Source: a virus
Lineage: Duplodnaviria; Heunggongvirae; Uroviricota; Caudoviricetes
Strand: one strand, 5' to 3'
Length of the DNA: 64,000 bases
Virus record (IMG/VR): IMGVR_UViG_3300022555_000011
Span: 83,381-147,380 of that record
Shown here: positions 16,165 to 54,677 of the stretch, one piece after another
Layout of the letters: the number at the start of each line of letters is the position of its first letter
Numbering within the stretch: position 1 is the stretch's first letter
The notes under the pieces: model-generated
Told to the model about the DNA's origin: nothing
The model's database searches: none
Seen by the model: the letters and a program-made list of their open reading frames with translations, nothing else
Program-made: the position numbers and the translations under genes

Positions 16165-16254
16165 CTAATAGTGGAGGAGTCAGGTTTACCTCGCTTGATT
16201 TGGGATCAAGAGGCAACGAAAGTTCATACGTGGGTTCGAATCCCACCTATTAGA
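16165..16254 (+). tRNA. tRNA-Pro(TGG)-like with class-II-like 19-nt variable arm
   Basis: acceptor CTAATAG/CTATTAG, anticodon arm CTTGA-TTTGGGA-TCAAG, T-arm GTGGG-TTCGAAT-CCCAC, discriminator A. Confidence 0.5.
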
Positions 16255-16316
16255 CAAGCTAGACTGTTAGAATTTCATAGACCGTTCAGAAAACGGAAGC
16301 TTAGAAATTCAGTTAT

Positions 16317-16391
16317 CGGGGTGTACTGCAGCTGGTTATACTACGGTGTTCTGGAAACATCGGTCCGCAGGTTCGAATCCTGTCACCCCGA
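16317..16391 (+). tRNA. tRNA-like, isotype uncertain (anticodon loop TCTGGAA, poor D-stem)
   Basis: perfect 7-bp acceptor CGGGGTG/CACCCCG, T-arm GCAGG-TTCGAAT-CCTGT. Confidence 0.35.
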
Positions 16392-16399
16392 CAAAAAAT

Positions 16400-16478
16400 G
16401 GTCCTGTATTGGCTCCGCCTTCTAAGCGAGATGTGCATAATGGAAATGAAAATGTGGGTTCGAGTCCCACCTGGATCA
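16400..16478 (+). tRNA. tRNA-like element A (paralog of 20881..20959), non-canonical interior
   Basis: T-arm GTGGG-TTCGAGT-CCCAC, acceptor GGTCCTG/CTGGATC with one T:T mismatch. Confidence 0.3.
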
Positions 16479-16494
16479 CTAAAAAATAATTGTT

Positions 16495-16746
16495 ATGAAT
16501 AAAGATGAATTTGTGAAATGGTTAGATGAAGATAGTAGTTTTTCAAGATCATATATAAATGATAATGATAATTGGGAAGAATTACAGAATTATGCAGAAT
16601 TTATTTTTGACTATTTGGAAGTAAATGAAAATTCTGCAACATTTAAATGGGAAGAATGGTATTGGGGTGGTAGAGAATATAGATCAACAGAATATTCATT
16701 TGACGAATTTATTGAAAGATATAATAATTTTGAATTAAGAAACTAA
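16495..16746 (+). CDS. hypothetical protein embedded in tRNA array
   Basis: ORF track, 83 aa. Confidence 0.45.
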   Translation: MNKDEFVKWLDEDSSFSRSYINDNDNWEELQNYAEFIFDYLEVNENSATFKWEEWYWGGREYRSTEYSFDEFIERYNNFELRN

Positions 16747-16810
16747 AAATTTCTTGTTCTTTGACATATTTAAGATTTAGAATTAGTGAAGATGTGAATC
16801 TTCACAAATT

Positions 16811-16887
16811 GGGGACGTAGCTCAATTGGCTAGAGCACTTGATTTGCATTCAAGAGGTTGGGATATCGTTCATCCTCGTCTCCACCA
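16811..16887 (+). tRNA. tRNA-Ala(TGC), CCA encoded
   Basis: GGGGACG acceptor with G3:U70, D-arm GCTC-AATTGGCTA-GAGC, anticodon loop TTTGCAT, 3' CGTCTCC-A-CCA. Confidence 0.6.
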
Positions 16888-16888
16888 T

Positions 16889-16961
16889 GGGTCATTGGTG
16901 AAGTTGACTATCACAGGAGTTTTGCACTCTCCAGTCACGGGTTTGATGCCCGTATGTATCC
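16889..16961 (+). pseudogene. degenerate tRNA-Ala-like pseudo-tRNA in tandem
   Basis: GGGTCAT...GTGA/TCAC D-stem, anticodon loop TTTGCAC, aberrant T-loop TTTGATG, 2 acceptor mismatches. Confidence 0.3.
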
Positions 16962-17029
16962 ACGATGTAGGGTTTTACGATTTTATATTTCCTTGAAACT
17001 TTTATAGTTGAGAAAGAAAAATCGAATTT

Positions 17030-17102
17030 GCAATTGTAGTTCAGTAGGTAGAATGCATCTGTGGTATAGATGATGTCGTGGGTTCGATTCCCACCTTTTG
17101 CT
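17030..17102 (+). tRNA. tRNA-Thr(GGT)
   Basis: TAGTTCAGTAGGTAGAAT D-arm, anticodon arm CATCT-GTGGTAT-AGATG, T-loop TTCGATT; 2 T:T mismatches in acceptor. Confidence 0.45.
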
Positions 17103-17158
17103 CTAAAATAAAGAAAACAAAAATGCTTTTTTGTTATATATAATAATAAAAAGTAAAT

Positions 17159-17842
17159 ATGAAATGGATAAAAGAATTAGATGAAAAAATAATAAATTTG
17201 GTTAAAAATGGCAAATCTTATAATGAAATTTCAGATGAAATTAATATGTCACCAAATTCTATTAGAAATAGATGTTTTAGATTAAATATAAAAAGTAGTA
17301 GTTATAAGAAAGATAAGACAAAAAAATTTTATTGTGTAGAATGCAATAAAGAATTTATTGATAATAAAGATAAAAATAGAAAATTTTGTAGTAATAGTTG
17401 TTCTGCAATATTTAATAATAAAACAATAACTAGAAAAAAAGTTACAGAAATTAAATTATGTTTAAATTGTAAATGTGAACTAGTTAATAAAAATAGTAAA
17501 TATTGTTCACAAAAATGTCAAATAGAATTTCAAACTGATAATCTTATAGAAAAATGGAAAAATGGTGAAATTGATGGTAACACTGGTATTAATAAAGAAG
17601 GTTTGTCTGTAACAATACGCAAATATATTATTAAAAAATATAACAATAAATGTTCAGTGTGTGGTTGGAATGAAGTTAATATTTTTACAGGTGTTGTCCC
17701 ATTAGAGGTTGACCATATTGATGGTAATCATTTAAATAGTAAAGAAGAAAATTTAAGACCTCTTTGTCCATCTTGTCATTCATTAACTGAATTTTATGGT
17801 GGTAGAAATAAAGGTAGAGGAAGAAAATATAGAAGAAAATAA
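17159..17842 (+). CDS. HNH homing endonuclease with tandem N-terminal zinc ribbons
   Basis: C..C...FCSNSCSAIFNN x2; EVDHIDGNHLN...LRPLCPSCHS. Confidence 0.7.
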   Translation: MKWIKELDEKIINLVKNGKSYNEISDEINMSPNSIRNRCFRLNIKSSSYKKDKTKKFYCVECNKEFIDNKDKNRKFCSNSCSAIFNNKTITRKKVTEIKLCLNCKCELVNKNSKYCSQKCQIEFQTDNLIEKWKNGEIDGNTGINKEGLSVTIRKYIIKKYNNKCSVCGWNEVNIFTGVVPLEVDHIDGNHLNSKEENLRPLCPSCHSLTEFYGGRNKGRGRKYRRK

Positions 17843-17844
17843 TT

Positions 17845-17930
17845 GCGAGAGTCGCATAGTGGTCGATTGCGCCAGCCTTCCAAGCTGGAAAGATAATATC
17901 ACACCGAGGGTTCGAATCCCTTTTCTCGCT
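17845..17930 (+). tRNA. tRNA-Gly(TCC) with class-II-like architecture (3-bp D-stem, about 16-nt variable arm)
   Basis: GCGAGAG acceptor, D-arm GCA-TAGTGGTCGAT-TGC, anticodon arm CCAGC-CTTCCAA-GCTGG (as in E. coli Gly-UCC), discriminator T. Confidence 0.5.
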
Positions 17931-17936
17931 CGTTTT

Positions 17937-18024
17937 GCAGTAATCTCCTAGTGGCCGATGGAACTGGGTTGCCAATCCAGTTAGTGAAAGCGCATCGTGG
18001 GTTCGAATCCCACTTACTGCTCCA
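17937..18024 (+). tRNA. tRNA-Gly(GCC) with class-II-like architecture, CCA encoded
   Basis: GCAGTAA/TTACTGC acceptor, D-arm TCC-TAGTGGCCGAT-GGA, anticodon arm CTGGG-TTGCCAA-TCCAG, 16-nt variable region, T-arm GTGGG-TTCGAAT-CCCAC, T-CCA. Confidence 0.55.
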
Positions 18025-18199
18025 AATTAAAATTAAAAATTATGAGTTCTAAAAACAAAAAAAGAAAAGAAAAAAATTGTTATTCAAATCATGGCTTTGC
18101 TTTGAAAGTAAGCGATATGAAATTGAAAAGATTACTTTATTTTAATGCTTCTATGAGAAGAAAAAATAATAAATTTGAAATAGAATAAAATATTAAAAT

Positions 18200-18275
18200 G
18201 CATCCTTCGCTTAGTTGGTTTTAAAGCATCTGTTTTACACACAGAGGATCGGCGGTTCGAATCCGTCAGGATGTA
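18200..18275 (+). tRNA. tRNA-Val(TAC)
   Basis: GCATCCT acceptor, D-arm GCTT-AGTTGGTTTTA-AAGC, anticodon arm TCTGT-TTTACAC-ACAGA, T-arm GGCGG-TTCGAAT-CCGTC. Confidence 0.6.
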
Positions 18276-18310
18276 CAAAATAAAAAGCAAATAAAAGACA
18301 AAGATGTGAT

Positions 18311-19210
18311 TTGACTTCAACTTTTTTTATATATAGTAATAAAATATGTATGGAAAATATGGAAAATAAAAAATGTCTTAATTGTGGTTGTTCACTAACA
18401 TATGAAAAAAGAAATAATAAATTTTGTGGAAGTTCATGTGCCGCTATTTTTAATAATAAAAATAGAAAAGGTAAATATGTTTATAATTTAAGTGAAACTG
18501 GATTAAATAACATTATTGAATCTAATAAAATTAATTTTCTTAAAAAAAGAAAACCTAAATTGTGCAAAAATTGTCAAAGTCCTTTTTATAACGAAAAAGG
18601 TGAAAAATTAAATTTTTGTTCTGATGATTGTAAAAAAGAATATAAAAAAGAAATTAAAGTTATTTCTGATGAAACTAAACAAAAGTTATCTAGTTCTTTG
18701 AAAAATTTTTATAAAACAGATGAAGGTGAAATAAATAAACAGAAATTAAGTTTATTATATATTGGAAAAATTTTTTCTGATGAATCTAAATTAAAATTAA
18801 GTATATCTGCTAAAAATAGATGTGAAGATATTAATGAAAGAATAAGATTGAGAGAAATCGGTAGAAAAGGAGGATTTGGTAAGAGTGGCTATACTATTAA
18901 TGGTATTTATTATCAGAGTACTTTTGAAAAAAAATGTTTTGAGTTTTTAGAAGAAAATAAAATAGAGTTTGAACCTCATAAGAGTTTGCCAGATTCTAGC
19001 AAAATATGTGATATATATTTTTCAGATAAAAATATATGGATTGAATTGGATGGAATTAATAGAGAAAAAAGAAAAAAATGGTTAAGTAAAGAATATAATT
19101 ATTGGTTAGATAAATTGAATGAATATAAAGAAAAAAAATTAGATTTTAAAATTTTTTATAATTATAATGAATTTATAGATTTTTTAAATACAAATGTCCC
19201 CATCGCTTAG
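18311..19210 (+). CDS. homing endonuclease: N-terminal zinc ribbon plus PD-(D/E)xK-like domain
   Basis: CLNCGCS...FCGSSCAAIFNN; ICDIYFSDKNIWIELDGINREK; stop TAG lies in downstream tRNA. Confidence 0.6.
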   Translation: MTSTFFIYSNKICMENMENKKCLNCGCSLTYEKRNNKFCGSSCAAIFNNKNRKGKYVYNLSETGLNNIIESNKINFLKKRKPKLCKNCQSPFYNEKGEKLNFCSDDCKKEYKKEIKVISDETKQKLSSSLKNFYKTDEGEINKQKLSLLYIGKIFSDESKLKLSISAKNRCEDINERIRLREIGRKGGFGKSGYTINGIYYQSTFEKKCFEFLEENKIEFEPHKSLPDSSKICDIYFSDKNIWIELDGINREKRKKWLSKEYNYWLDKLNEYKEKKLDFKIFYNYNEFIDFLNTNVPIA

Positions 19211-19271
19211 TTGGCTATAAAGCGTCTGTTTTACATGCAGAAGATCCAAGGTTCGAGTCCTTGTGGGGATA
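19196..19271 (+). tRNA. tRNA-Val(TAC) second copy, 5' 15 nt overlapped by endonuclease ORF
   Basis: GTCCCCA/TGGGGAT acceptor, same D-arm and anticodon arm as 18200..18275 (loop TTTACAT), T-loop TTCGAGT. Confidence 0.5.
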
Positions 19272-19280
19272 CAAATAAAT

Positions 19281-19354
19281 TTACGGATAGTTCAGTAGGT
19301 CAGAATACTTGTGTGACATGCAAGAGGTCGTGGGCTCGAATCCCACTCCGTAAA
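19281..19354 (+). tRNA. tRNA, anticodon loop GTGACAT (possibly Val-GAC)
   Basis: perfect acceptor TTACGGA/TCCGTAA, TAGTTCAGTAGGTCAGAAT D-arm, T-loop CTCGAAT. Confidence 0.4.
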
Positions 19355-19446
19355 CAAATTGTGATAAAATAATCAATATATTGTAATTTTTCTCACATTT
19401 TATATATTTTTTGAATATTTGTGATTTTTTTATCAATATATTTTAT

Positions 19447-19519
19447 GCAGTCTTAATATAGTTGGTTATTATTCTGGCTTTGTAACCCAGGTACGTGAGT
19501 TCGAATCTCACAGTCTGCT
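19447..19519 (+). tRNA. tRNA-Thr(TGT), class I
   Basis: acceptor GCAGTCT/AGTCTGC (1 mismatch), anticodon loop TTTGTAA, T-arm GTGAG-TTCGAAT-CTCAC. Confidence 0.45.
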
Positions 19520-19539
19520 CAAAAACTATTTTAATTTAC

Positions 19540-19610
19540 GCTTCTGTAATTTAATGTAAAATGCCGAATTCGTAACTCGGAGAATGCAAGTTCAAGACTT
19601 GTCAGAAGCT
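19540..19610 (+). tRNA. tRNA-Thr(CGT)-like with AT-rich D-arm lacking GG
   Basis: perfect acceptor GCTTCTG/CAGAAGC, anticodon loop TTCGTAA, T-loop TTCAAGA. Confidence 0.35.
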
Positions 19611-19623
19611 CAAAAACAAACAA

Positions 19624-19703
19624 CGAGGTTTTGGGGAGTCAGGTCACCCCGCCACATTTGGGATGTGGAGCAATTATCGCAGGTTCGAATCCTGCAACCT
19701 CGA
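19624..19703 (+). tRNA. tRNA-Pro(TGG) with 10-nt variable region
   Basis: CGAGGTT/AACCTCG acceptor, D-arm GGGG-AGTCAGGTCA-CCCC, anticodon arm CCACA-TTTGGGA-TGTGG, T-arm GCAGG-TTCGAAT-CCTGC, discriminator A. Confidence 0.55.
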
Positions 19704-19758
19704 CAATATTTAGGTTCAAATAGTATAAACTTGATATATTTTTATTACTATATACTAT

Positions 19759-20598
19759 ATGAATAATTATTTAGGATCAAAAGAGCATAAAGACAATGCA
19801 AGAAATTCAATTTTATTAGGATTAAAAAAATTAAAAGAATTAAAGGTAGAAAGAATTAAAAAATATTATTCCGAGCCATCTTTTTGTTTATGTTGTGATA
19901 AAGTATTAAGTTATGAAAAGAAGAATAATAAATTTTGCTCTAGTTCATGCTCTGCAAGTTATAATAATAAAGGACGAATAGTATCAGATGAGCAAAAAAA
20001 GAAAGTAAGTTTAAGTTTATCTGGCATTAAAAGAAACGAAAAATTAAGCGAAAATATTAAGGAACATAAAAGAATATGTTCATATTGCAAAAAAGAGTTC
20101 ATAGTATGGAGACTTAATAACAATACTTTATCACATAGTAAGCATTGTAGTTCTGGTTGTACTAATTCCAGTATGAAAGAAAAAGTTAGTTTGATAATAA
20201 AAGAAAAAGTTAAGAATGGAACACATAAAGGCTGGCAAAGTAGAAATATTGAAAGTTATCCAGAGAAATTTTTTAAGATAGTTTTAGAAAATAATGGGAT
20301 AAAATATAAATTCAATAAAGTTATTTCAAAAAGAAGTTTAGGTTTAGATTGTGATGCTAATTATTTTTTAGATTTTTATCTGAAAGATAAAAATATAGAT
20401 TTAGAAATAGATGGAAAGCAACATAATTATGAGGATAGAATAGAAAATGATGAATTAAGAGATTTTACATTGATAAAAAATGGATTTATAGTGTATAGAA
20501 TAAAGTGGAAAGAAATACAAACAAATGACGGTAAAAATTACATAAAAAATGAAATTGATAAGTTTTTAGAATTTTATAATAATGCCTTCTTCGCATAG
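19759..20598 (+). CDS. homing endonuclease: N-terminal zinc ribbon plus PD-(D/E)xK-like domain
   Basis: CLCCDK...FCSSSCSASYNN; LDFYLKDKNIDLEIDGKQH; stop TAG lies in downstream tRNA. Confidence 0.6.
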   Translation: MNNYLGSKEHKDNARNSILLGLKKLKELKVERIKKYYSEPSFCLCCDKVLSYEKKNNKFCSSSCSASYNNKGRIVSDEQKKKVSLSLSGIKRNEKLSENIKEHKRICSYCKKEFIVWRLNNNTLSHSKHCSSGCTNSSMKEKVSLIIKEKVKNGTHKGWQSRNIESYPEKFFKIVLENNGIKYKFNKVISKRSLGLDCDANYFLDFYLKDKNIDLEIDGKQHNYEDRIENDELRDFTLIKNGFIVYRIKWKEIQTNDGKNYIKNEIDKFLEFYNNAFFA

Positions 20599-20668
20599 CG
20601 GTCGATTGCACCTGACTTGTAATCAGGATCTGAATTAAGACACGTCGGTTCGAATCCGACAGAAGGCT
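20584..20668 (+). tRNA. tRNA with Thr(TGT) anticodon and class-II architecture (16-nt variable arm)
   Basis: perfect stems: GCCTTCT/AGAAGGC, D-arm GCA-TAGCGGTCGAT-TGC, CCTGA-CTTGTAA-TCAGG, GTCGG-TTCGAAT-CCGAC. Confidence 0.5.
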
Positions 20669-20674
20669 CAAAAT

Positions 20675-20746
20675 GGCTTCATAATTTAAGGGATAAAATT
20701 CGGGATTTCTAATCCCGCCATCTGAGTTCGAGTCTCAGTGAGGCTA
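20675..20746 (+). tRNA. tRNA-Arg(TCT)
   Basis: D-stem ATTT/AAAT, anticodon arm CGGGA-TTTCTAA-TCCCG, T-arm CTGAG-TTCGAGT-CTCAG. Confidence 0.55.
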
Positions 20747-20753
20747 CTATAAC

Positions 20754-20825
20754 GCAGAAGAAGCTCATTAGGTCGAGTAGGAGATTTCAATCTTCAGGTA
20801 GCGAGTTCGAATCTCGTCTTCTGCT
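20754..20825 (+). tRNA. tRNA-like with irregular anticodon arm (loop TTTCAA(T); TCA or TTC?)
   Basis: perfect acceptor GCAGAAG/CTTCTGC, D-arm GCTC-ATTAGGTC-GAGT, T-arm GCGAG-TTCGAAT-CTCGT. Confidence 0.35.
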
Positions 20826-20880
20826 CAAAAATATGTCGGGAACGGGAACGCACTGCTGGCGAGCAGCCCGCCGACACCAT

Positions 20881-20959
20881 GCACCTGTAATGGCGGAGTT
20901 TCCTAAACTCTATGTGCATAACGGAATGAAAAATGTGGGTTCGAATCCCATCTGGTGCC
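20881..20959 (+). tRNA. tRNA-like element B (paralog of 16400..16478)
   Basis: T-arm GTGGG-TTCGAAT-CCCAT, acceptor GCACCTG/CTGGTGC with T:T mismatch at same position as element A. Confidence 0.3.
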
Positions 20960-21047
20960 CAATTCTAAATCTTAAATTAATCTCTCTAAAAATATTAAAC
21001 TTTTATATTTTTTTAATTTATAATATTTTATAAATAAATTTTCAAAA

Positions 21048-21995
21048 ATGAGAGAGATAATTTTTAAAAACACAAAATTGAAGCCAATTGTACAGCAAAC
21101 TGAATATGGTCATGAGTGTACATTTGAAACCCTGTTCTTTGATGAAAGTAATCCTGATCTTATACGTGGCAAATTTAGTGATATTGTATTAAACAATATT
21201 TCTGGATCTGTATTGCATAGAAATTATGTTGAATATCTTAAAATAGCATATAATAATGATTATGGTATAGTTATTAGTCCTAATCATATTTGGTTCACAA
21301 TTCTTTGTAGTTTGGCAAAAATTATTAAAGATGATGCTGATCTATTTAAGAAGTTTTTTACCAAATCAGAAAAAGAAGAAAAAACAATAGTTGAGTTAAA
21401 AGAAGGTGGAGTAAGTATGATTGAGATGCCAATTGAAAAAATGATGGATTTAATTCTTAAACAATTACCATCTAAAATAAAAAAATCATATATTTTACCA
21501 AAAATTAGTACCACTACACCAGAATTTGAATTGGCTTGTGCAACTGCGTTTCTTGATACTTGTTCTCCTTATTATGATTATCGTTTTTATGGTTGTGGTT
21601 ATAATAAAATAAAAATTCTTGGCACAAAAAAGGATTATGAAGTTTTATCTAAATCATTTAATGATTTGATTAATAAACTTATTCCAGGACATTACAAGAT
21701 TGATAAGATAAATAAATTTTATGATTCTGTAAGTGAAACATTTCATAAAATTGATAGAAATTATGATGATGATAAATTTTGGGAAAGAATTCTTTGGACA
21801 GAATATGGATATATATCACAAAATTTAGATGGTTGGATTATGCCTTTGCAATTGCGTGATGCTCATTATGCAATTTGTGAATATACAGAAATATTATCAA
21901 ATAAAAAATATGCTTTTAGCACTGGTATATTTTCTTCAAAAATTGAGGATGGATATTTAATTCCTGAATTTGAAAAATTTATAGTGAGTTTATGA
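21048..21995 (+). CDS. hypothetical protein
   Basis: 315-aa ORF. Confidence 0.5.
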   Translation: MREIIFKNTKLKPIVQQTEYGHECTFETLFFDESNPDLIRGKFSDIVLNNISGSVLHRNYVEYLKIAYNNDYGIVISPNHIWFTILCSLAKIIKDDADLFKKFFTKSEKEEKTIVELKEGGVSMIEMPIEKMMDLILKQLPSKIKKSYILPKISTTTPEFELACATAFLDTCSPYYDYRFYGCGYNKIKILGTKKDYEVLSKSFNDLINKLIPGHYKIDKINKFYDSVSETFHKIDRNYDDDKFWERILWTEYGYISQNLDGWIMPLQLRDAHYAICEYTEILSNKKYAFSTGIFSSKIEDGYLIPEFEKFIVSL

Positions 21996-23532: not shown

Positions 23533-26500
23533 ATGAGCGAATGGATTTTACAGTATGAAGAAGGTGAACCAATAAGAAGGAAATTAAATGAATTAAAAAG
23601 CACTGTTGATTTTATAGTTGCATCTGGTCTTACTTATACTTCTGGTACTTCTGGAACATCAGGTTCTGATGGAACTTCTGGTACATCTGGCACATCTGGT
23701 ACATCTGGCACATCTGGTACATCTGGTAAAGATGGTGTTTTTTTAGGAAGTTCAGGAAGTTCAGGCTTGTCTGGTGTTGATGGAACTTCAGGAACATCAG
23801 GCACGAATGGAACAGATGGAACATCAGGTACTAATGGGACGGATGGAACATCGGGCACTAACGGAACGGATGGTACATCGGGCACTAATGGAACTGATGG
23901 TACATCAGGTACTAACGGTACGAATGGAACGGATGGAACATCGGGCACTAACGGTACGAATGGAACTGATGGAACATCAGGCACAAATGGAACAGATGGA
24001 ACATCAGGCACGAATGGAACAGATGGAACATCAGGTACTAATGGGACGGATGGAACATCGGGCACTAACGGAACGGATGGAACATCGGGCACTAACGGTA
24101 CGAATGGAACGGATGGAACATCAGGTACTAACGGTACGAATGGAACGGATGGAACATCGGGCACTAACGGTACGAATGGAACGAATGGTACATCAGGCAC
24201 AAATGGTACATCTGGAACTAATGGTACATCAGGCACAAATGGTACATCTGGAACTAATGGTACATCAGGCACAAATGGTACATCTGGAACATCAGGAACG
24301 AATGGTACATCAGGCACGAATGGTACAAATGGTACAAATGGTACATCTGGAACGAATGGTACATCTGGAACGAATGGTACAAATGGTACATCTGGAACGA
24401 ATGGTACAAATGGTACAAATGGTACATCTGGAACGAATGGTACATCTGGAACGAATGGTACAAATGGCACATCTGGAACGAATGGCACAAATGGTACATC
24501 TGGAACGAATGGTACATCTGGAACGAATGGTACAAATGGTACATCTGGAACGAATGGTACATCTGGAACGAATGGTACAAATGGTACGAATGGTACAAAT
24601 GGTACATCTGGAACGAATGGTACATCAGGAACTTCAGGTGTTGGTATTTCTGGAACTAATGGAACATCAGGATCTTCTGGTATATCTTTAAATCCAAATG
24701 AATTAATAAATATACAATCAACTGGTGTATTGACTGGTGGTATTTTACAAATACCTTCAACTGGATCAACTGCTACATATTTTAATATAACAGATGGTAC
24801 TGGTTATATAATAAATAATTATACTGATCCATTAAATCCAATTAAAACTATTATAAGTTGGAGTGGATTAACAGGAATAACATCAGAATTTAGTTGGTTG
24901 GATGGTGAAGAATCAAATGTTGCAATTGATATAAATGGTAATGTTTTTCAACAAGTAAATCAATTTACAGATGCACAAAGAACAGATTTAATTGTATTAG
25001 GAACATTAGGACATTATGATGATGGTGGTGATATTGATTATGTTATACCAGAGCCAGTATCAATAACAGAGCCATTAGTTAAATTAGATAGTTTTTTACA
25101 AATGTTTGGCGCATTTAATGTTACTGGTAATGTTTTTTATGCTAATGGATCAAATTTAAATGTGAGTAAAACTGCTGGTGAGACATTTGATAATAATAAC
25201 AATTATTATATTGATAAAAAAACACCATCATTAGTTATTAGTGATTCGATATCAAAGTGTTGGTTTAATTATTATTTTAGAAGTGGTTCAACTTGGGAAT
25301 TTGGTGACTACACACAAAGCATTGACCCTAATAGATATGATACTGGAAATGGATTAACTGGTGTAACTGCTTCAGGATATACTATTCAAATGATATTCTA
25401 TTATGCTCCATTAGATAATGTTAGCCTAAATGTGGATATTCAATATGGTCAAAAGGTATATACTTCAAAAGAAAACGCTTTAGCAGATATAAATAATATA
25501 GTTGCAATTAATCCGTATTTAAATATGGATACATTTAGAGGATGGTTAATTGTTAAACAAGGTGCTACTGAGTTAAATAGTGATAATCAAGCAAGATTTA
25601 TTTCAGCAGGAAAGTTTGGTTTAGTGTCAAGTTCAACTGGAACAGGAGTAAGTGGAGGTATTACAACAGCTTCAAATATAGGTTTATATGGTCAAGGATT
25701 ATTTCACGATAAATTGGGTGTAGATTTAAGATTTAAAAATATAAATGCATATTCTGGTATAACAGTTATTGATAATCCTTCAAGTAATACATTGGATTTA
25801 TTTTTAACAAATATAAGTACTGGAACATCAGGCACATCAGGTACTAATGGTACATCTGGTACATCTGGAGTAGGAACTAATGGAACATCAGGTACATCTG
25901 GTGTTGGAACAAATGGAACATCAGGTACATCTGGTATAGGTATTTCTGGAACTAATGGAACATCAGGTACATCTGGAACTAACGGAACCTCAGGTACATC
26001 TGGAACTAACGGAACATCAGGCACATCTGGTATTTCTGGAACTAATGGAACTTCTGGCACAAATGGTACAAATGGAACTAATGGAACATCAGGTACATCT
26101 GGAGTAGGAACTAATGGAACATCTGGAACAAATGGAACATCAGGCACGTCTGGAGTAGGAACAAATGGAACATCAGGCACGTCTGGAGTAGGAACAAATG
26201 GAACATCAGGCACGTCTGGAGTAGGAACTAATGGAACAAATGGAACATCAGGTACATCTGGCGTTGGAACTAATGGAACATCAGGTACATCTGGAGTAGG
26301 AACATCTGGAACAAATGGAACATCAGGCACATCTGGTGTTGGAACAAATGGAACAAATGGAACATCAGGCACATCTGGTGTTGGAACAAATGGAACATCA
26401 GGTACATCAGGTGTAGGAACATCAGGAACTAATGGAACATCAGGAATAAATGGTGTTACTGGTGGTGTTACTATGTTATTTAGATTTAGTGGTTCTACAT

Positions 26501-27186
26501 TAGCAACTACAACAACTGGGTATACTCAATTTAATAATTTGACATTATCAAGTGTTACTCATTTATATGTTAGTGAAACAGATAGAAACGGTGCAAATAT
26601 AGATAAATATTTAGATTCAGTTGGTGTAGGAGATTATATTAAGATTTTTTCGGAACAAGATAATACAAAATTTCATTTATTTCAATTAAGTTCTGGATTC
26701 ACAAGTGGTGCTGGAGTAGATGATATGCCAGTAACATATATAGTAGGAAATGGAACATTTGCATTAAATGAGTTGATAGGATTTTCAACTGCAACAAAAG
26801 GAAATGCTGGTACTTCTGGCACAAATGGTGTAGGTATATCCAATATTACTTTTTTATTAGCAGTAGGAACTATATTAACAACTGGTACTAATAAAGCAAG
26901 AGTTACAGTTCCATATGTAGGAACAATATTAAAAGCATATGCAAGTTCTGGAACTGGACCACAAGGTGCGGACGATATTTTTGATATATATAGAAATGGT
27001 GTGAGTATATGGAATATTACGCAATCTAACAGATTAAAAATTTTAAGTGGTCAGACCTATGGAACTCAATCATCTTTTGATATAACTTCTATTGCAGAAG
27101 GTGATATTTTATCAATAGATGTAGATCAAGTTGGTAGTACAACACCAGGTGGAGATATATCAGTTCAATTAAAAATACAAATTTAA
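23533..27186 (+). CDS. collagen-like (GXY)n repeat tail-fibre-like protein
   Basis: two long G-T-S/G-T-N/G-T-D triplet-repeat regions flanking a globular domain; SD AAGGTGA upstream. Confidence 0.7.
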   Translation: MSEWILQYEEGEPIRRKLNELKSTVDFIVASGLTYTSGTSGTSGSDGTSGTSGTSGTSGTSGTSGKDGVFLGSSGSSGLSGVDGTSGTSGTNGTDGTSGTNGTDGTSGTNGTDGTSGTNGTDGTSGTNGTNGTDGTSGTNGTNGTDGTSGTNGTDGTSGTNGTDGTSGTNGTDGTSGTNGTDGTSGTNGTNGTDGTSGTNGTNGTDGTSGTNGTNGTNGTSGTNGTSGTNGTSGTNGTSGTNGTSGTNGTSGTSGTNGTSGTNGTNGTNGTSGTNGTSGTNGTNGTSGTNGTNGTNGTSGTNGTSGTNGTNGTSGTNGTNGTSGTNGTSGTNGTNGTSGTNGTSGTNGTNGTNGTNGTSGTNGTSGTSGVGISGTNGTSGSSGISLNPNELINIQSTGVLTGGILQIPSTGSTATYFNITDGTGYIINNYTDPLNPIKTIISWSGLTGITSEFSWLDGEESNVAIDINGNVFQQVNQFTDAQRTDLIVLGTLGHYDDGGDIDYVIPEPVSITEPLVKLDSFLQMFGAFNVTGNVFYANGSNLNVSKTAGETFDNNNNYYIDKKTPSLVISDSISKCWFNYYFRSGSTWEFGDYTQSIDPNRYDTGNGLTGVTASGYTIQMIFYYAPLDNVSLNVDIQYGQKVYTSKENALADINNIVAINPYLNMDTFRGWLIVKQGATELNSDNQARFISAGKFGLVSSSTGTGVSGGITTASNIGLYGQGLFHDKLGVDLRFKNINAYSGITVIDNPSSNTLDLFLTNISTGTSGTSGTNGTSGTSGVGTNGTSGTSGVGTNGTSGTSGIGISGTNGTSGTSGTNGTSGTSGTNGTSGTSGISGTNGTSGTNGTNGTNGTSGTSGVGTNGTSGTNGTSGTSGVGTNGTSGTSGVGTNGTSGTSGVGTNGTNGTSGTSGVGTNGTSGTSGVGTSGTNGTSGTSGVGTNGTNGTSGTSGVGTNGTSGTSGVGTSGTNGTSGINGVTGGVTMLFRFSGSTLATTTTGYTQFNNLTLSSVTHLYVSETDRNGANIDKYLDSVGVGDYIKIFSEQDNTKFHLFQLSSGFTSGAGVDDMPVTYIVGNGTFALNELIGFSTATKGNAGTSGTNGVGISNITFLLAVGTILTTGTNKARVTVPYVGTILKAYASSGTGPQGADDIFDIYRNGVSIWNITQSNRLKILSGQTYGTQSSFDITSIAEGDILSIDVDQVGSTTPGGDISVQLKIQI

Positions 27187-39909: not shown

Positions 39910-40983
39910 TTATTTTTTGAATAAGTCTGAAATAGATGCGTGTGTATTTACTCTATTTATAGACTTTGCTATTAAGTCTGCTACACTTATAACTTTTATT
40001 TTATCTGATTTGATTGTCAATGGAATTGTGTCAGTGATTATAATTTCTGTAATTTTAGATTTTTCAATTCTCTCATATGCTGGACCTGATAAAACTGCGT
40101 GTGGAATACAAGCTCTTACACTTAATGCTCCTTTTTTGTTTATTAAAATATCAGCGGCTGTAGTAATTGTTCCAGCAGTGTCAATAATATCATCAATAAA
40201 AATAACATTACAACCATTAACGTCTCCAATAAGTTCCATTTTATCTATCGTATTTGCAACACTTCTTTCTTTATACATAAAGATCATTCTAGTCTTAAAG
40301 TGCTCTGCATAAGGTTTTACTCTTTTTCCGCCACCTTCATCTGGTGAGCCAATGACCATATTTTTAAGGTTTAATGTTTCAATATATGGCATAAAAACAT
40401 AAGAACTTTTTAATGCGTCAACTGGAATATTGAAAAATCCACTAATTTGATCTGCATGAAGGTCTATTGTTATGATTCTGGTTGCTCCTGCGGTTTGAAT
40501 TATGTCCGCTAACATTTTAGCTGTGATTGGAACTCTTGGTCTATCTTTTCTATCTTGTCTTGCCCATCCAAAGTATGGAATAACTGCAACAATGTCTTTT
40601 GCTGATGCCCTCTTAGCTGCATCAATCATTTGAAGTAATTCAAAAACACTGTCAGATGATGAGATGAGATATTTTAGATATTCTCTGGCTTCTTCTTGTT
40701 TTTCTGGTGGTATAAGTTGTACTATTCTCTCAGCTTCATTATAAGATGAATATAGAGAGGATATGAGGAAGACCTTATCACCTCTTACATTTTCATCTAA
40801 ACCATGGCAAAACTCACCGTCTGAGAAAACTTTGAAATTACTTTTGCTTAGTTCGACACCATATGAAGAAGCTATTTGTTCTGCTAAATAGATTGATTTA
40901 GAACTTGAAAAAATTTTTACTGACATATTTTCTTTTAATTTGGGGTTTATATGAAAAATATTGTTAAAAGTTTTGTTCGTCAC
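39910..40983 (-). CDS. prs: ribose-phosphate pyrophosphokinase (PRPP synthetase)
   Basis: GWARQDRK, DLHADQISGFFNIPVD, DDIIDTAGT. Confidence 0.85.
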   Translation of the reverse strand: MTNKTFNNIFHINPKLKENMSVKIFSSSKSIYLAEQIASSYGVELSKSNFKVFSDGEFCHGLDENVRGDKVFLISSLYSSYNEAERIVQLIPPEKQEEAREYLKYLISSSDSVFELLQMIDAAKRASAKDIVAVIPYFGWARQDRKDRPRVPITAKMLADIIQTAGATRIITIDLHADQISGFFNIPVDALKSSYVFMPYIETLNLKNMVIGSPDEGGGKRVKPYAEHFKTRMIFMYKERSVANTIDKMELIGDVNGCNVIFIDDIIDTAGTITTAADILINKKGALSVRACIPHAVLSGPAYERIEKSKITEIIITDTIPLTIKSDKIKVISVADLIAKSINRVNTHASISDLFKK

Positions 40984-49489: not shown

Positions 49490-50830
49490 ATTTATATTAT
49501 ATTTTTATTATATATAAATTTTTAATTTTAATTTTTACAATATGTTATTATATATAGTTCTGTAATTTCTTACATTCTTTTCCTAATTCTATGACTGAAC
49601 TAATGTTCTGGTCTTCAAAGGCGTTAATTTGGGTGAACTCAACCCTATTTTTAAAATTCGTTTTCCTTCATTTTCAATATTCTTTGCGGCATTAAAATCT
49701 CTATCGTGATTTGAACCACATTTTGGACAAATCCAATTGCGATCATTTAATGTTAAATCATCTTTCTTATATCCACAATTAGAACATAATTTACTTGAAG
49801 GAAACCATCTATCTATTTCAATTATATCTCTACCATACCAACTTGCTTTATATTTTAATATTTCTTTAAATCTATATAAACTTAATTCATTTATTGATTT
49901 TGCTAAACAATGATTTTTAATCATTCCTTTAACATTTAAATTTTCTATTACTATAACTTGGTTTTCGTTAAGTAATTTATTTGTAATCGAATGTAGATAG
50001 TATTCTTTTTTATTATTTAATTTTTCGTAAAATCTTGCTAATTTAATTCTTGACTTTTCTTTATTCTTGCTATTATTTTCTTTTCTTGAATGCAATTGAT
50101 GAAGTTTTTTTAACTTATCTTCATTATTTCTTCTAATCTTGATATTATCAAAATTAATTCCATCAGAACCAACAATGAAAGTTTTTATACCAACATCAAT
50201 TCCAATTACTTTATTAGTATTTGGTAATTTTTTATTATTATCTCTATCAATTAAAATAGATAAATAATATTTATTTGATCTTGTTTTTGTTAGTGTTATT
50301 GATTTTATCTTTTTTTGATTTTTATTAATAAATTTTTCATCATTTTTTGAACATTTATAATGAATACAATTTAACGACCTAGTTAAATTTATCATATTGC
50401 CTGTTATTCCAATAATAGCATCACTAGGAAATCTACAAGATTGTTTGTTGTCTTTTTTTGATTTAAATTTTGGAAATCCATAATCATTTTTGAAAAATGA
50501 TTTATATGCGCTTTCTAGATTTATGAGTGTTTGTTGAATAACTTTAGAATGACTATCTCTAATCCAAATATACTCAGTTTTTAGTGATGTTAGATATTTT
50601 CCAACTTCCCCAAACGAAGTAGATTTTTTATTTTCATTATATTCATTTATTTTATATGATAAGCAATTATTATAAACAAATCTACAAGTACCCAGCATCT
50701 TATTTATATAAGATTGCTGATTTTCGTTTGGATAAATTTTTATTTTAATTGCCTTTAACATAAGTATAATAATTTTATACTCTATATATAAATAAAATAA
50801 AGTCATATTTTTCTATTTTTGTAACTTTCT
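49490..50830 (-). mobile_element. tnpB-only IS200/IS605-like element (ends not defined)
   Basis: TnpB ORF; no tnpA seen. Confidence 0.3.
49589..50806 (-). CDS. tnpB: TnpB (IS200/IS605 OrfB) RuvC-like nuclease with C-terminal zinc finger
   Basis: N-term IKIKIYPNENQQSYINKMLGTCRFVYNNCL; GIDVGIK; CSNCGYKK...CPKCGSNHDRDFNAAKNI. Confidence 0.75.
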   Translation of the reverse strand: MTLFYLYIEYKIIILMLKAIKIKIYPNENQQSYINKMLGTCRFVYNNCLSYKINEYNENKKSTSFGEVGKYLTSLKTEYIWIRDSHSKVIQQTLINLESAYKSFFKNDYGFPKFKSKKDNKQSCRFPSDAIIGITGNMINLTRSLNCIHYKCSKNDEKFINKNQKKIKSITLTKTRSNKYYLSILIDRDNNKKLPNTNKVIGIDVGIKTFIVGSDGINFDNIKIRRNNEDKLKKLHQLHSRKENNSKNKEKSRIKLARFYEKLNNKKEYYLHSITNKLLNENQVIVIENLNVKGMIKNHCLAKSINELSLYRFKEILKYKASWYGRDIIEIDRWFPSSKLCSNCGYKKDDLTLNDRNWICPKCGSNHDRDFNAAKNIENEGKRILKIGLSSPKLTPLKTRTLVQS

Positions 50831-52998: not shown

Positions 52999-54243
52999 TT
53001 GAAATTAACTGAAAGACATATAATAACAAAATATCATCCTAACTTTAAAGAGTGTGATGATTTATGTTTTAAATCAAAAAATATCTATAACAGGTCACTA
53101 TATCTAATCAAAGAAGACTTGAAAGACAATAAATATGATGTTCTTAATAAATTATTTAATTATATGAAATCAGAAGATTGTTTTAAGGAATTACCTATGA
53201 AAGTTGCGACAGCAACCACAATTCAGGTTCAAAAAATATATAAATCATTCTTTAAATCAATGATATATTATGGTAAAAATCCTACAAAATATAAAAGTAG
53301 GCCAGAACAACCAAGGTTTTTAAGCAAAGAAAAGGGTAGATTTATAATATCGTATAATTATCAAGCAATATCAAAAAAAGTATTTAAGGCAGCAAACAAG
53401 ATCAAACTATCAGGAACAAATATTGAATTTACTACCAAATTAAAAGATTTTGAAACAATTGATTGTGTTAGAATTATACCAAGATTAAATCAGTATATTA
53501 TTGAAGTGTGCTATACTTTTAATGAAAGATCACAGGTTAGAGACAATAAAAGATATGGTTCTATTGATTTAGGTGTAAGCAATTTAGCAACATTCACATC
53601 AAGTATTAAAGGATTTCAACCATTAATTTTTAATGGAAAACCATTAAAATCAATAAATCAGTATTATAATAAAAAAATGGCTTTAATGAAGTCAAAACTT
53701 GAGTTAGTAAATAAGAAAAAATCAAGTAAAAAATTAAGGTTATTAACAAATAAAAGAAACAATAAGGTAGATAATTATTTACATAAAGCAAGCAAAGAAA
53801 TAGTTAAAACTTTAGTTGCTAATAATATGTCAAAATTAGTTATTGGTAAAAATGATGGTTGGAAGTTTGAAACCAAAATGTCAAAGCAATCTAATCAAAA
53901 TTTTATTCAGATACCACATAGTAGATTTATACAAATGATCCAGTATAAATGCGAAAAAGAGGGTATTCGTGTTATCGTTCAAGAAGAAAGTTATACCAGT
54001 AAAGCATCTTTCTTGAATTTAGATGTTATGCCAATTTACGATAAGAATAATGATACCATGCACATATTTAGTGGATATCGTAAATCAAGAGGTTTATATA
54101 AAGTTAAGTCCGATGGACGGTCTATCAATGCTGATATAAATGGTAGTTATAACATATTAAGAAAAGCAATTCCAAATGTTTTTTCAAATGGAATAGAGGG
54201 TTTTGTAGTTAACCCAAAAGTTATTAAATTAACTTTAAACTAA
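52999..54243 (+). CDS. tnpB: TnpB-like RuvC nuclease lacking the C-terminal CxxC zinc finger
   Basis: IDLGVSNLATF, ESYTSKAS, NADINGSYNILRKA. Confidence 0.65.
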   Translation: MKLTERHIITKYHPNFKECDDLCFKSKNIYNRSLYLIKEDLKDNKYDVLNKLFNYMKSEDCFKELPMKVATATTIQVQKIYKSFFKSMIYYGKNPTKYKSRPEQPRFLSKEKGRFIISYNYQAISKKVFKAANKIKLSGTNIEFTTKLKDFETIDCVRIIPRLNQYIIEVCYTFNERSQVRDNKRYGSIDLGVSNLATFTSSIKGFQPLIFNGKPLKSINQYYNKKMALMKSKLELVNKKKSSKKLRLLTNKRNNKVDNYLHKASKEIVKTLVANNMSKLVIGKNDGWKFETKMSKQSNQNFIQIPHSRFIQMIQYKCEKEGIRVIVQEESYTSKASFLNLDVMPIYDKNNDTMHIFSGYRKSRGLYKVKSDGRSINADINGSYNILRKAIPNVFSNGIEGFVVNPKVIKLTLN

Positions 54244-54279: not shown

Positions 54280-54500
54280 TCTTTGAAAATTTGGGGGTGC
54301 ATGTTTTGACAGTAATGTAGAATGAGGTTATCAGCAAGTATCGCATTGTCTAGAGTGGCGATTAATAAATTAGTGGGTATAAACAATAAATGGCGAAGCA
54401 CATACGCATATCGTTACTTCTAAATCAACAATCGCAGTTGCTGGAACTGTAGTTGAGACCGAAGTTTCTGTAGCCTAAACAGGAAAACCAGAACATTCTT
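54280..54500 (+). ncRNA. candidate TnpB-associated omega-RNA / structured ncRNA
   Basis: 470-bp ORF-free, GC-richer region directly 3' of tnpB; hairpin GGGGAG-TCGTA-TCCCC; terminator at 54678. Confidence 0.3.
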
Positions 54501-54677
54501 TTTCGTAAACGATTTTGAGATTATCATAAATGGTTAGAGGATTTAATAATTACCTTTTCAAAATTATTTATTTTTGTTTGTTTTAGAAAAAATAAAATAA
54601 ACTTGTAGAAGATGCCAAAAGGCGTTATTGGACGGGGAGTCGTATCCCCCACCTCCACATCTGATAATCAGATAGTT

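Follow-up and report, generated by a model that had tools for sequence, protein, structure and literature searches.

Two adjacent tRNA-Gly genes of a tailed phage combine glycine acceptor marks with a serine-type core

Introduction

By the usual rule only the Leu, Ser and Tyr tRNAs of bacteria have a long variable arm. It is worth asking what to make of two genes that do not follow this rule. They lie next to each other in a 64,000-nucleotide stretch of a giant tailed phage (Caudoviricetes; IMG/VR virus record IMGVR_UViG_3300022555_000011, positions 83,381 to 147,380), which we call the window. Both have glycine anticodons, and both have the D arm and the long variable (V) region of a class II tRNA. 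Are these glycine tRNAs, serine tRNAs in disguise, or decaying copies? We argue that both genes probably encode glycine-accepting elongator tRNAs built on a serine-type core, that they belong to a recurrent phage lineage, and that they decode GGN codons. We put the probability of this reading at roughly 0.7. The argument is built on gene structure, conservation, covariation and identity elements.

Structure of the two genes

The tRNA-Gly(UCC) gene (17845..17930, + strand) is 86 nt long to the discriminator base U73, and its CCA is not encoded. The tRNA-Gly(GCC) gene follows at 17937..18024 (+). It runs for 85 nt to U73 (18021) and then encodes CCA at 18022-18024. ARAGORN reports them as tRNA-Gly(tcc), 17845-17931, and tRNA-Gly(gcc), 17937-18024, and neither is given a Ser or Leu anticodon. 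With the Rfam tRNA model RF00005 they reach 55.2 and 50.7 bits, where the gathering score is 29. Both have the 7-bp acceptor stem, the 5-bp anticodon and T stems and the GTTCGAATC-type T loop of that family.

In the UCC gene the acceptor stem (17845-17851 / 17923-17929) reads GCGAGAG/TTCTCGC and includes one G.U pair. The anticodon arm spans 17872-17888 and the T arm 17906-17922. The anticodon TCC (17879..17881, +) sits in the loop CTTCCAA and reads GGA/GGG. The anticodon arm as a whole, CCAGCCTTCCAAGCTGG, is identical in a class I tRNA-Gly(TCC) of the uncultured phage LR756501 (L002 5462-5534; fetched loci are cited here by L numbers). In the GCC gene the acceptor stem (17937-17943 / 18014-18020) reads GCAGTAA/TTACTGC, the anticodon arm spans 17964-17980, and the T arm spans 17997-18013. 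Its anticodon GCC (17971..17973, +) lies in the loop TTGCCAA and reads GGU/GGC. These stems and loops, and the single encoded CCA, had been described in an initial annotation of the DNA, and the ARAGORN cloverleaves agree with it.

A class I core has a 4-bp D stem and a variable loop of 4-5 nt. Neither gene has one. In both, the D stem is 3 bp and the D loop, UAGUGGYCGAU, is 11 nt. In the UCC gene the D stem (17854-17856 / 17868-17870) encloses TAGTGGTCGAT (17857-17867), and the V region AAAGATAATATCACACC (17889..17905, +) is 17 nt long with a conserved 3' tail, CACACC, that ends in C48. In the GCC gene the D stem (17946-17948 / 17960-17962) encloses TAGTGGCCGAT (17949-17959), and the V region TTAGTGAAAGCGCATC (17981..17996, +) is 16 nt long. 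Both V regions exceed the 10 nt that we take as the class II minimum. A pattern that joins the D loop, the T loop and a V region of 8 nt or more has 3 matches in the window, and a Gly-specific form of it has 2. The expectation from 100 dinucleotide-preserving shuffles is 0.00 in each case.

The comparison with canonical class I tRNA-Gly of bacteria (L002 5462-5534, or the glyT-type tRNA-Gly2 of E. coli) is therefore a mixed one. The window genes share with it the UCC and GCC anticodons, the loops CUUCCAA and UUGCCAA, the G1:C72, C2:G71 and U73 positions, and the 7/5 acceptor/T branch. They differ in the D stem, which is 3 bp rather than 4 bp with an 11-nt loop of the Ser type, and in a V region of 16-17 nt rather than 4-5 nt.

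The core is of the serine type

Which class II tRNA does this core resemble? When the D-loop/long-V/T-loop pattern was run over cellular genomes, 113 of the 119 matches listed were tRNA-Ser. Actinobacterial tRNA-Ser(UGA) makes up most of the list, its D arm being GCC-TAGTGGCCGAT-GGC. Profile HMMs were built from the tRNAs of the fetched contigs. The tRNA-Ser profile scores the window genes at 32.8 and 31.5 bits over nearly their full length, while a class I Gly control reaches 11.0 bits. The Leu profile gives 7.8 and 11.7 bits and the Tyr profile -0.5 to 14 bits. The class I Gly profile gives the UCC gene 40.2 bits, and the GCC gene 16.1 bits through its T arm only. The best profile for both is that of the long-V tRNA-Thr, at 48.0 and 37.4 bits. 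In a direct comparison the GCC gene is 77.5% identical to tRNA-Ser(GCT) of Streptomyces phage BillNye.

Bacterial tRNA-Ser has the same D arm, with a 3-bp stem and an extended loop that includes positions 20a and 20b, and a long V region that starts 1-2 nt past the anticodon stem and ends in C48. Judged from these likenesses, the D arm of both Gly genes is of the tRNA-Ser type. The class II scaffold proposed for them is thus supported in its D arm and in the length of its V region. What separates the window genes from bacterial tRNA-Ser is C2:G71 rather than G2:C71, U73 rather than G73, a V stem of 2-3 bp rather than 4-8 bp, and the Gly anticodons.

The variable regions

The V regions had been proposed to form small hairpins, and this is the weakest part of the initial description. 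In the GCC gene the hairpin GTG/AAAG/CGC is the thermodynamic register (-1.1 kcal/mol), and it is retained in the full-length minimum free energy (MFE) fold. It has a competitor. A register with G84-C91 and U85.G90 under a GAAA tetraloop fits the homologues better, since the V stems of homologues are GAC-GAAA-GTC (L104), AGC-GAAA-GCT (L061, L032, L098) and TGC-GAAA-GCA (L018). In the UCC gene the candidate mini-hairpin pairs GAT (17892-17894) with ATC (17898-17900) around AAT. UCC-type homologues keep GA..UC while the loop between varies (AAU, AGA, GAA, AGU or GAAA), which fits a mini-hairpin of 2 or 3 pairs. In either window gene the hairpin is at most 3 bp long.

Across the family, V regions have a mean folding energy of -1.80 kcal/mol, against -0.58 kcal/mol in shuffles, and GNRA loops are common. 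Among V regions of at least 13 nt, 93% are able to form a hairpin of at least 3 bp, compared with 66% of shuffles (maximum 79.5% in 500). There are 82 distinct V stems in this set, and small hairpins with GNRA or UUCG loops are enriched. The stems are short, with a median of 3 bp in long-V Gly and Thr genes versus 5 bp in Ser (98 Ser genes from the same contigs, range 3-8). On the same D arm the V length is graded, with classes at 5, 7-8, 11-12 and 14-18 nt. The last base of the V region is nearly always a C, a candidate partner for G15.

Amino acid identity

A serine-type core raises the question of which synthetase would charge these tRNAs. The bacterial Gly identity set consists of U73, G1-C72, C2-G71, C35 and C36 (PMC9976931). 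All five are present in both window genes, and the initial annotation had read the acceptor elements correctly from the sequence. The pair C2-G71 is also a negative element, or antideterminant, against E. coli SerRS, and G2:C71 is conserved in most bacterial tRNA-Ser (PMC9976931). The window genes have neither the G2:C71 nor the G73 of tRNA-Ser, and their 2-3-bp stems are not its long arm.

The same picture holds for the homologues. Over the four cloverleaf helices of 13 distinct long-V Gly genes, paired cells make up 95.8%, and 15 of the 20 pairs change on both sides. No shuffle of 500 reaches this covariation score, and slid controls are only 36-50% paired. Against this background of change G1:C72 and C2:G71 are invariant, and so are the D loop and the T loop.

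A census of the distinct tRNAs in the viral loci extends this to other isotypes. Long-V Gly genes have U73 in 10/11, G1:C72 in 11/11 and C2:G71 in 11/11. In the long-V Thr genes U73, G1:C72 and C2:G71 are each found in 59/59. The long-V His genes have C73 and G-1 in 5/5 each. Among the other long-V genes, Asn has G73 (8/9), Pro A73 (8/8), Val A73 (6/6) and Cys U73 (5/5). For comparison, Ser has G73 in 54/66 and G2:C71 in 58/66, and Leu and Tyr have A73, which is present in all 48 long-V Leu genes. In most isotypes with enough examples, then, the acceptor identity of a long-V gene agrees with the anticodon that it carries and is not that of Ser, Leu or Tyr. Altered charging, one of the roles first suggested for the pair, is disfavoured by these cognate marks and by the antideterminant against SerRS.

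Recurrence in phages

The scaffold had been compared to rarities such as the nev-tRNAs of nematodes. On that scale they are not rare. An exact-pattern scan misses any gene whose D loop or T loop departs from this one, and even so the Gly-specific pattern is found in 17 IMG/VR contigs and 74 metagenome contigs, with both scans complete. The general pattern is found in more than 117 IMG/VR contigs. By ARAGORN isotype, the matches listed are Thr(UGU) 91 (51 distinct), Gly(UCC) 14, His 4, Ser 3, Trp 2, Met 2 and Asn 2. The isotypes of the by-catch genes come from ARAGORN only, and four long 'Phe' calls with mispaired acceptors look unreliable. No clear bias of the long-V isotypes toward substrates of class II synthetases was found (about 42 versus 34 distinct genes, Thr excluded).

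Close relatives of both window genes are among the carriers. A V region identical to that of the UCC gene occurs in L243, L260, L269, L278 and L313, and in L243 these identical 17 nt are joined to an acceptor stem altered by compensatory changes. The closest homologue of the GCC gene is a long-V Gly(GCC) in L104 (3196-3283), which is 90% identical to it outside the D arm and V region. The tandem of a long Gly(UCC) and a long Gly(GCC) is also present in L247.

Cultured phages carry the scaffold too. A blastn search of GenBank phages, a method with too little sensitivity for tRNAs, gave a handful of matches that are no guide to prevalence. In the Pseudomonas jumbo phage HPP-Temi (genus Pawinskivirus; PP968062.1) a tRNA-Thr(UGU) of 87 nt (16284-16370) is built on the scaffold and is annotated as a plain tRNA-Thr. 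Directly after it (L245 9094-9180) lies a long-V tRNA of 87-88 nt, which the record calls tRNA-Phe and to which ARAGORN gives the anticodon AAA. Cellulophaga phage phi4:1 has a Gly(UCC) with the same D arm. It also has an 89-nt tRNA-Asn(GTT) (L240 5526-5614; KC821632.1 about 90400-90481) with a 5-bp V arm GAGAT/ATCTC, U1:A72 and G73. The GenBank record lists this gene as 'tRNA-OTHER / tRNA-Pseudo', and long-V genes may be systematically discarded as pseudogenes. A reverse oddity was seen in the viral loci L003-L119 and L240, where 27 of 95 ARAGORN tRNA-Leu calls have a V region of 6 nt or less. These short-V tRNA-Leu keep A73 in 23/23 distinct genes, and an example is the 76-nt tRNA-Leu(TAG) of phi4:1 (L240 2832-2907).

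Five of the cellular matches listed are 85-nt tRNA-Thr(UGU) genes (L131, L178, L224, L237 and L133). Four of them are identical and come from Spirosoma genomes, with a Ser-type D arm and a GCGC-AA-GCGC V arm (e.g. L131 2011-2095). At the one Spirosoma locus examined the neighbours are DUF349, amidase and amylase genes, and no integrase domain was detected in the four neighbouring ORFs of that locus. The fifth is a similar Thr(UGU) in an Eremiobacterota metagenome-assembled genome, beside tRNA-Tyr and tRNA-Gly(UCC). The Spirosoma copy is chromosomal and lies among housekeeping genes; therefore the architecture is viable in cellular translation, and it is not intrinsically a phage counter-defence device.

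Decoding and origin

We propose that host GlyRS would charge both tRNAs with glycine through G1:C72, C2:G71, U73, C35 and C36. The GCC tRNA would then read GGU and GGC and the UCC tRNA GGA and GGG, so that the ribosome could be supplied for every GGN codon of this AT-rich phage. By standard wobble rules the two anticodons do cover all of them together. The ORFs of the window use GGT 341, GGA 203, GGC 61 and GGG 10 times. No class I tRNA-Gly was found in the window, and the two long-V genes are the only Gly tRNAs found there. Only the core is unusual, with the 3-bp D stem, the loop U13-A14-G15-Y16-G18-G19-Y20-C20a-G20b-A21-U22, and the V region of 16-17 nt with a mini-hairpin of at most 2-3 bp. 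C48 at the end of the V region would pair with G15.

Where could such a molecule come from? The Gly genes have their module of D arm and V region in common with a large family of tRNA-Thr(UGU) genes in phages. The most likely ancestor of this module is a tRNA-Ser-like gene, which would have been remoulded in its anticodon and in its acceptor determinants. This route is plausible because Ser UGA and Thr UGU are one base apart, and because Thr and Gly share G1:C72, C2:G71 and U73.

Several points count against our reading and should be stated together. Left unconstrained, the full-length MFE fold of the UCC gene takes another shape than the cloverleaf and has a z-score of only -1.72. The V region of this gene, with the GAT-AAT-ATC hairpin first proposed, has no stable fold by itself (0 kcal/mol, ViennaRNA); its two candidate GA..UC pairs never covary in the UCC-type homologues. 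The GCC gene has U10, and Thermus GlyRS reads G10 as well as U16 (PMC9976931). That GlyRS tolerates a Ser-type core is an assumption. The acceptor, anticodon and T arms of the UCC gene are 92% identical to class I Gly and 86% identical to the closest long-V Gly (49 nt). Finally, the succession from Ser to Thr to Gly rests on resemblance and short sequences, and module exchange or convergence are conceivable alternatives to it. Two specific candidates were considered and dropped. One is a module-swap origin of the UCC gene, for which 92% versus 86% is too small a difference over 49 nt. The other is an alternative fold in which GUGGU of the D loop pairs with AUCAC of the V region, as in the UCC MFE structure; by eye, in the sequences compared, the C16 variants of the D loop do not covary with the V tail.

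Relation to known tRNAs

Long V regions on unexpected anticodons are known from other systems too. The nev-tRNAs of nematodes have Gly or Ile anticodons on a body like that of tRNA-Leu, and they reportedly accept leucine in vitro (PMC3333845, PMC4300185). They are likewise cases of a long V region on an anticodon of a class I family, Gly included. They differ in being Leu-like and nematode-borne, while the window genes have a Ser-like core and Gly acceptor marks, and the carriers are phages and some bacteria. The Leu profile scores given above, U73 in place of A73 and the phage context all keep the window genes apart from this group. Hamashima et al. 2016 reportedly dealt with non-canonical V-arm tRNAs of other eukaryotes.

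The allo-tRNAs are tRNA-Ser/Sec-like, have long V arms and many non-Ser anticodons, and some lie in phage-associated tRNA clusters (PMC5389517). Their acceptor/T branch is 8/4 or 9/3, their long D stem carries a tetraloop, and their identity is presumed to be Ser (PMC5389517). The window genes differ in each respect. Their branch is 7/5, an 11-nt loop sits on a D stem of 3 bp, and the acceptor identity is cognate, and we do not count them as allo-tRNAs. We did not find a published 7/5 phage tRNA with a Ser-type core and a cognate non-Ser identity in the literature searched, outside of which most subscription journals fall.

Alternative explanations

The strongest alternative accepts the same molecules and gives the core an adaptive purpose. 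The Ser-type core would be kept for its poor recognition by enzymes that read tRNA shape, so that phage translation continues as class I tRNAs are destroyed or blocked. Candidate shape-readers are anticodon nucleases, PARIS, Septu/PtuAB, toxSAS, GNAT toxins, Schlafen-type nucleases, and host-tRNA depletion induced by the phage itself. There is precedent for part of this, since phage tRNAs are reported to rescue infection from tRNA-targeting defences (PMC10264068, PMC11464382 and PMC13096335). In the known cases (PMC10264068; T5 tRNA-Lys against PARIS, PMC11464382), the escaping phage tRNAs are likewise structurally unlike those of the host and lie in arrays with homing endonucleases, but it is the anticodon loop or stem that is altered and not the class of the core. 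One toxin, FaRel2, targets exactly tRNA-Gly and tRNA-Thr. It reads the acceptor stem, however, which is unchanged here, and the scaffold is also chromosomal in Spirosoma.

The pairing of long-V and class I genes bears on this alternative in both directions. A class I twin with the same anticodon is present in the locus for 40/111 (36%) of the long-V genes other than Thr(UGU), versus a class I baseline of 16%, a contrast that is weak as the loci are partial and were picked by the pattern. The two versions are often adjacent. For long-V Thr(UGU), however, a class I partner occurs in only 6/97, and the long-V gene is usually the sole Thr(UGU) gene of its locus. Paired class I and long-V copies as a general rule are thus rejected for Thr(UGU) and otherwise weakly supported. 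We consider evasion an attractive but rather unlikely reason for the core. A different modification route, which the initial annotation also suggested, is speculative as well. The same tentative standing applies to the broadest form of evasion, which is that phages would keep a second chassis, shaped like that of serine, on which many class I identities are built (Thr, Gly, His, Asn, Pro, Val, Met, Trp and others), each with its cognate synthetase identity intact, as a disguise from shape-reading immunity, toxins or their own depletion of host tRNAs, and that it would spread within arrays by remoulding or module exchange.

A second alternative is recoding. SerRS, or LeuRS as with the nematode nev-tRNAs, would charge both tRNAs, and GGN would partly be read as Ser or Leu. 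The attraction is that serine identity lies mainly in the variable arm and tertiary shape while the anticodon is ignored (PMC9976931), that Mukai et al. admit U73 as well as G73 in allo-tRNAs that are putatively charged with Ser (PMC5389517), and that the window genes do score about 32 bits on the tRNA-Ser profile. The identity elements make this very improbable. The C2:G71 antideterminant is invariant in the long-V Gly and Thr genes of the census, G2:C71 and G73 are absent, and the V stems of 2-3 bp fall short of the Ser median. The acceptor marks follow the anticodon in most isotypes, down to the G-1/C73 of His, and this would be pointless if SerRS were intended. As for leucine, A73 is absent and the profile scores are 8-12 bits. 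The ORFs also read well in the standard code.

It could also be argued that both genes are decaying duplicates, pseudogenes or relics in a fast-evolving array rich in homing endonucleases, and that the long V region is a junk insertion. Some array members do look damaged (the gene at 20754-20826 with its anticodon loop of 6 nt, the low-scoring Ala at 16889-16961, the mispaired 93-nt 'Arg'), and GenBank flags the long-V Asn of phi4:1 as tRNA-Pseudo. Decay does not explain strong covariation in all four stems of 13 distinct genes, the invariant D loop, T loop and identity pairs, or the same V region kept across contigs with compensatory acceptor changes. Nor does it sit well with these two being the only Gly tRNAs found in the window. 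We give it very little credence.

The weakest idea is that the extra 11-12 nt are an intervening sequence excised to give a class I tRNA-Gly. Archaea do have non-canonical introns elsewhere in their tRNAs. The idea is hardly credible, as excision would leave behind a D stem of 3 bp and a D loop of 11 nt, both of the Ser type that as a rule goes with a long V region, V lengths are graded on the same D arm with hairpins enriched, no bulge-helix-bulge motif was seen, and to our knowledge bacteria are without the splicing endonuclease.

The tRNA array and its neighbours

The two Gly genes sit in an array of 17 tRNA genes (16165-20960). The window has a G+C content of 27.8% and is tiled well by standard-code ORFs. 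Its only relatives by distant blastn are LR756501, which is a 735-kb phage, and Lak megaphages. The array is broken up by endonuclease-like ORFs of the HNH, NUMOD-like and DUF559 kinds. An HNH homing-endonuclease-like ORF (17159..17842, +; Pfam PF01844, E = 3.9e-6) with a Myb/zinc-finger-like N-terminus stops 2 nt upstream of tRNA-Gly(UCC). A NUMOD3-like endonuclease-like ORF lies at 18311-19210 and a DUF559 endonuclease-like ORF at 19759-20598. The array order is broadly similar in L032, L061, L104 and the window (Pro, Ala, Thr(GGU), Gly, Val, Thr, Arg). When the arrays are compared, L032 has a class I Gly(GCC) in the place of the HNH ORF. An IMG/VR search with the neighbouring DUF4419 ORF (21048-21995) gave no matches.

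The third window match to the general pattern is a tRNA-Thr(UGU) at 20584..20668 (+), identified by ARAGORN, Rfam and the pattern. It is on the same scaffold, with the D arm GCA-TAGCGGTCGAT-TGC, nearly the same as that of Gly(UCC), and its V region of 16 nt contains TCT/AGA. The array also has a Thr(UGU) of class I, at 19447-19520. That long V regions are widespread in the array is shown by the tRNA-Pro(UGG) at 16165..16254 (+), which has a 19-nt V region (AAC-GAAA-GTT) on a different D arm. This V region recurs in L032 (10380-10472). A second tRNA-Pro(UGG), at 19624-19703, has a V region of 10 nt.

Other members of the array are odd in their own ways. A weak tRNA-Ala lies at 16889-16961 (Rfam 34.5 bits). 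The tRNA at 20754-20826 (+; Rfam 47.5 bits) has an anticodon loop of 6 nt, and ARAGORN calls it 'tRNA-???' with the anticodon 'tc'. Two homologous tRNA-like genes, at 16402-16481 (+) and 20880-20958 (+), are without a D arm, which is replaced by a 7-nt linker, TATTGGC in one and TAATGGC in the other. Each has a T.T mismatch in the acceptor stem and a normal T arm. Both have Arg anticodons, UCU in the loop CTTCTAA of the first and CCU in the loop TTCCTAA of the second, and they have a V region of 22-23 nt in common, ATGTGCATAAYGGAA(A)TGAAAA(A)T. ARAGORN missed the first and called the second as a mispaired 93-nt tRNA-Arg(CCT) at 20868-20960. The first also matched a 'tRNA-Ser' of Alishewanella phages by blastn.

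Elsewhere in the window there is an Rfam tmRNA match at 54293-54660 (+; 53.8 bits, gathering 47), where ARAGORN gives no tmRNA. It lies 50 nt downstream of a TnpB-like gene (52999-54243, +; OrfB_IS605 and Cas12f1-like TNB), and a second TnpB-like gene is at 49589-50806 (-). The window also encodes a 1217-aa collagen triple-helix repeat protein (23533-27186, +; Pfam E = 7e-53) and a PRPP synthetase homologue (39910-40983, -).

Implications

The rule that only Leu, Ser and Tyr tRNAs have a long arm underlies tRNA classification, models of synthetase identity, and gene finders. At least one phage record already marks such a gene as a pseudogene. If the serine-shaped chassis did turn out to be a disguise, it would be a new general principle of counter-defence, with natural class-II-like tRNAs of cognate identity. 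A recurrent family with Gly, Thr, His, Asn and other members, each joining a serine-type core to its own acceptor identity, would show that the tRNA core and the identity elements are recombinable in nature. It would provide a natural test set in which GlyRS, ThrRS, EF-Tu, modification enzymes and tRNA-targeting toxins meet a class II core, as well as ready-made scaffolds for tRNA engineering. The cultured carriers, namely the Pawinskivirus jumbo phage, Cellulophaga phage phi4:1 and the Spirosoma species, make these questions directly testable.

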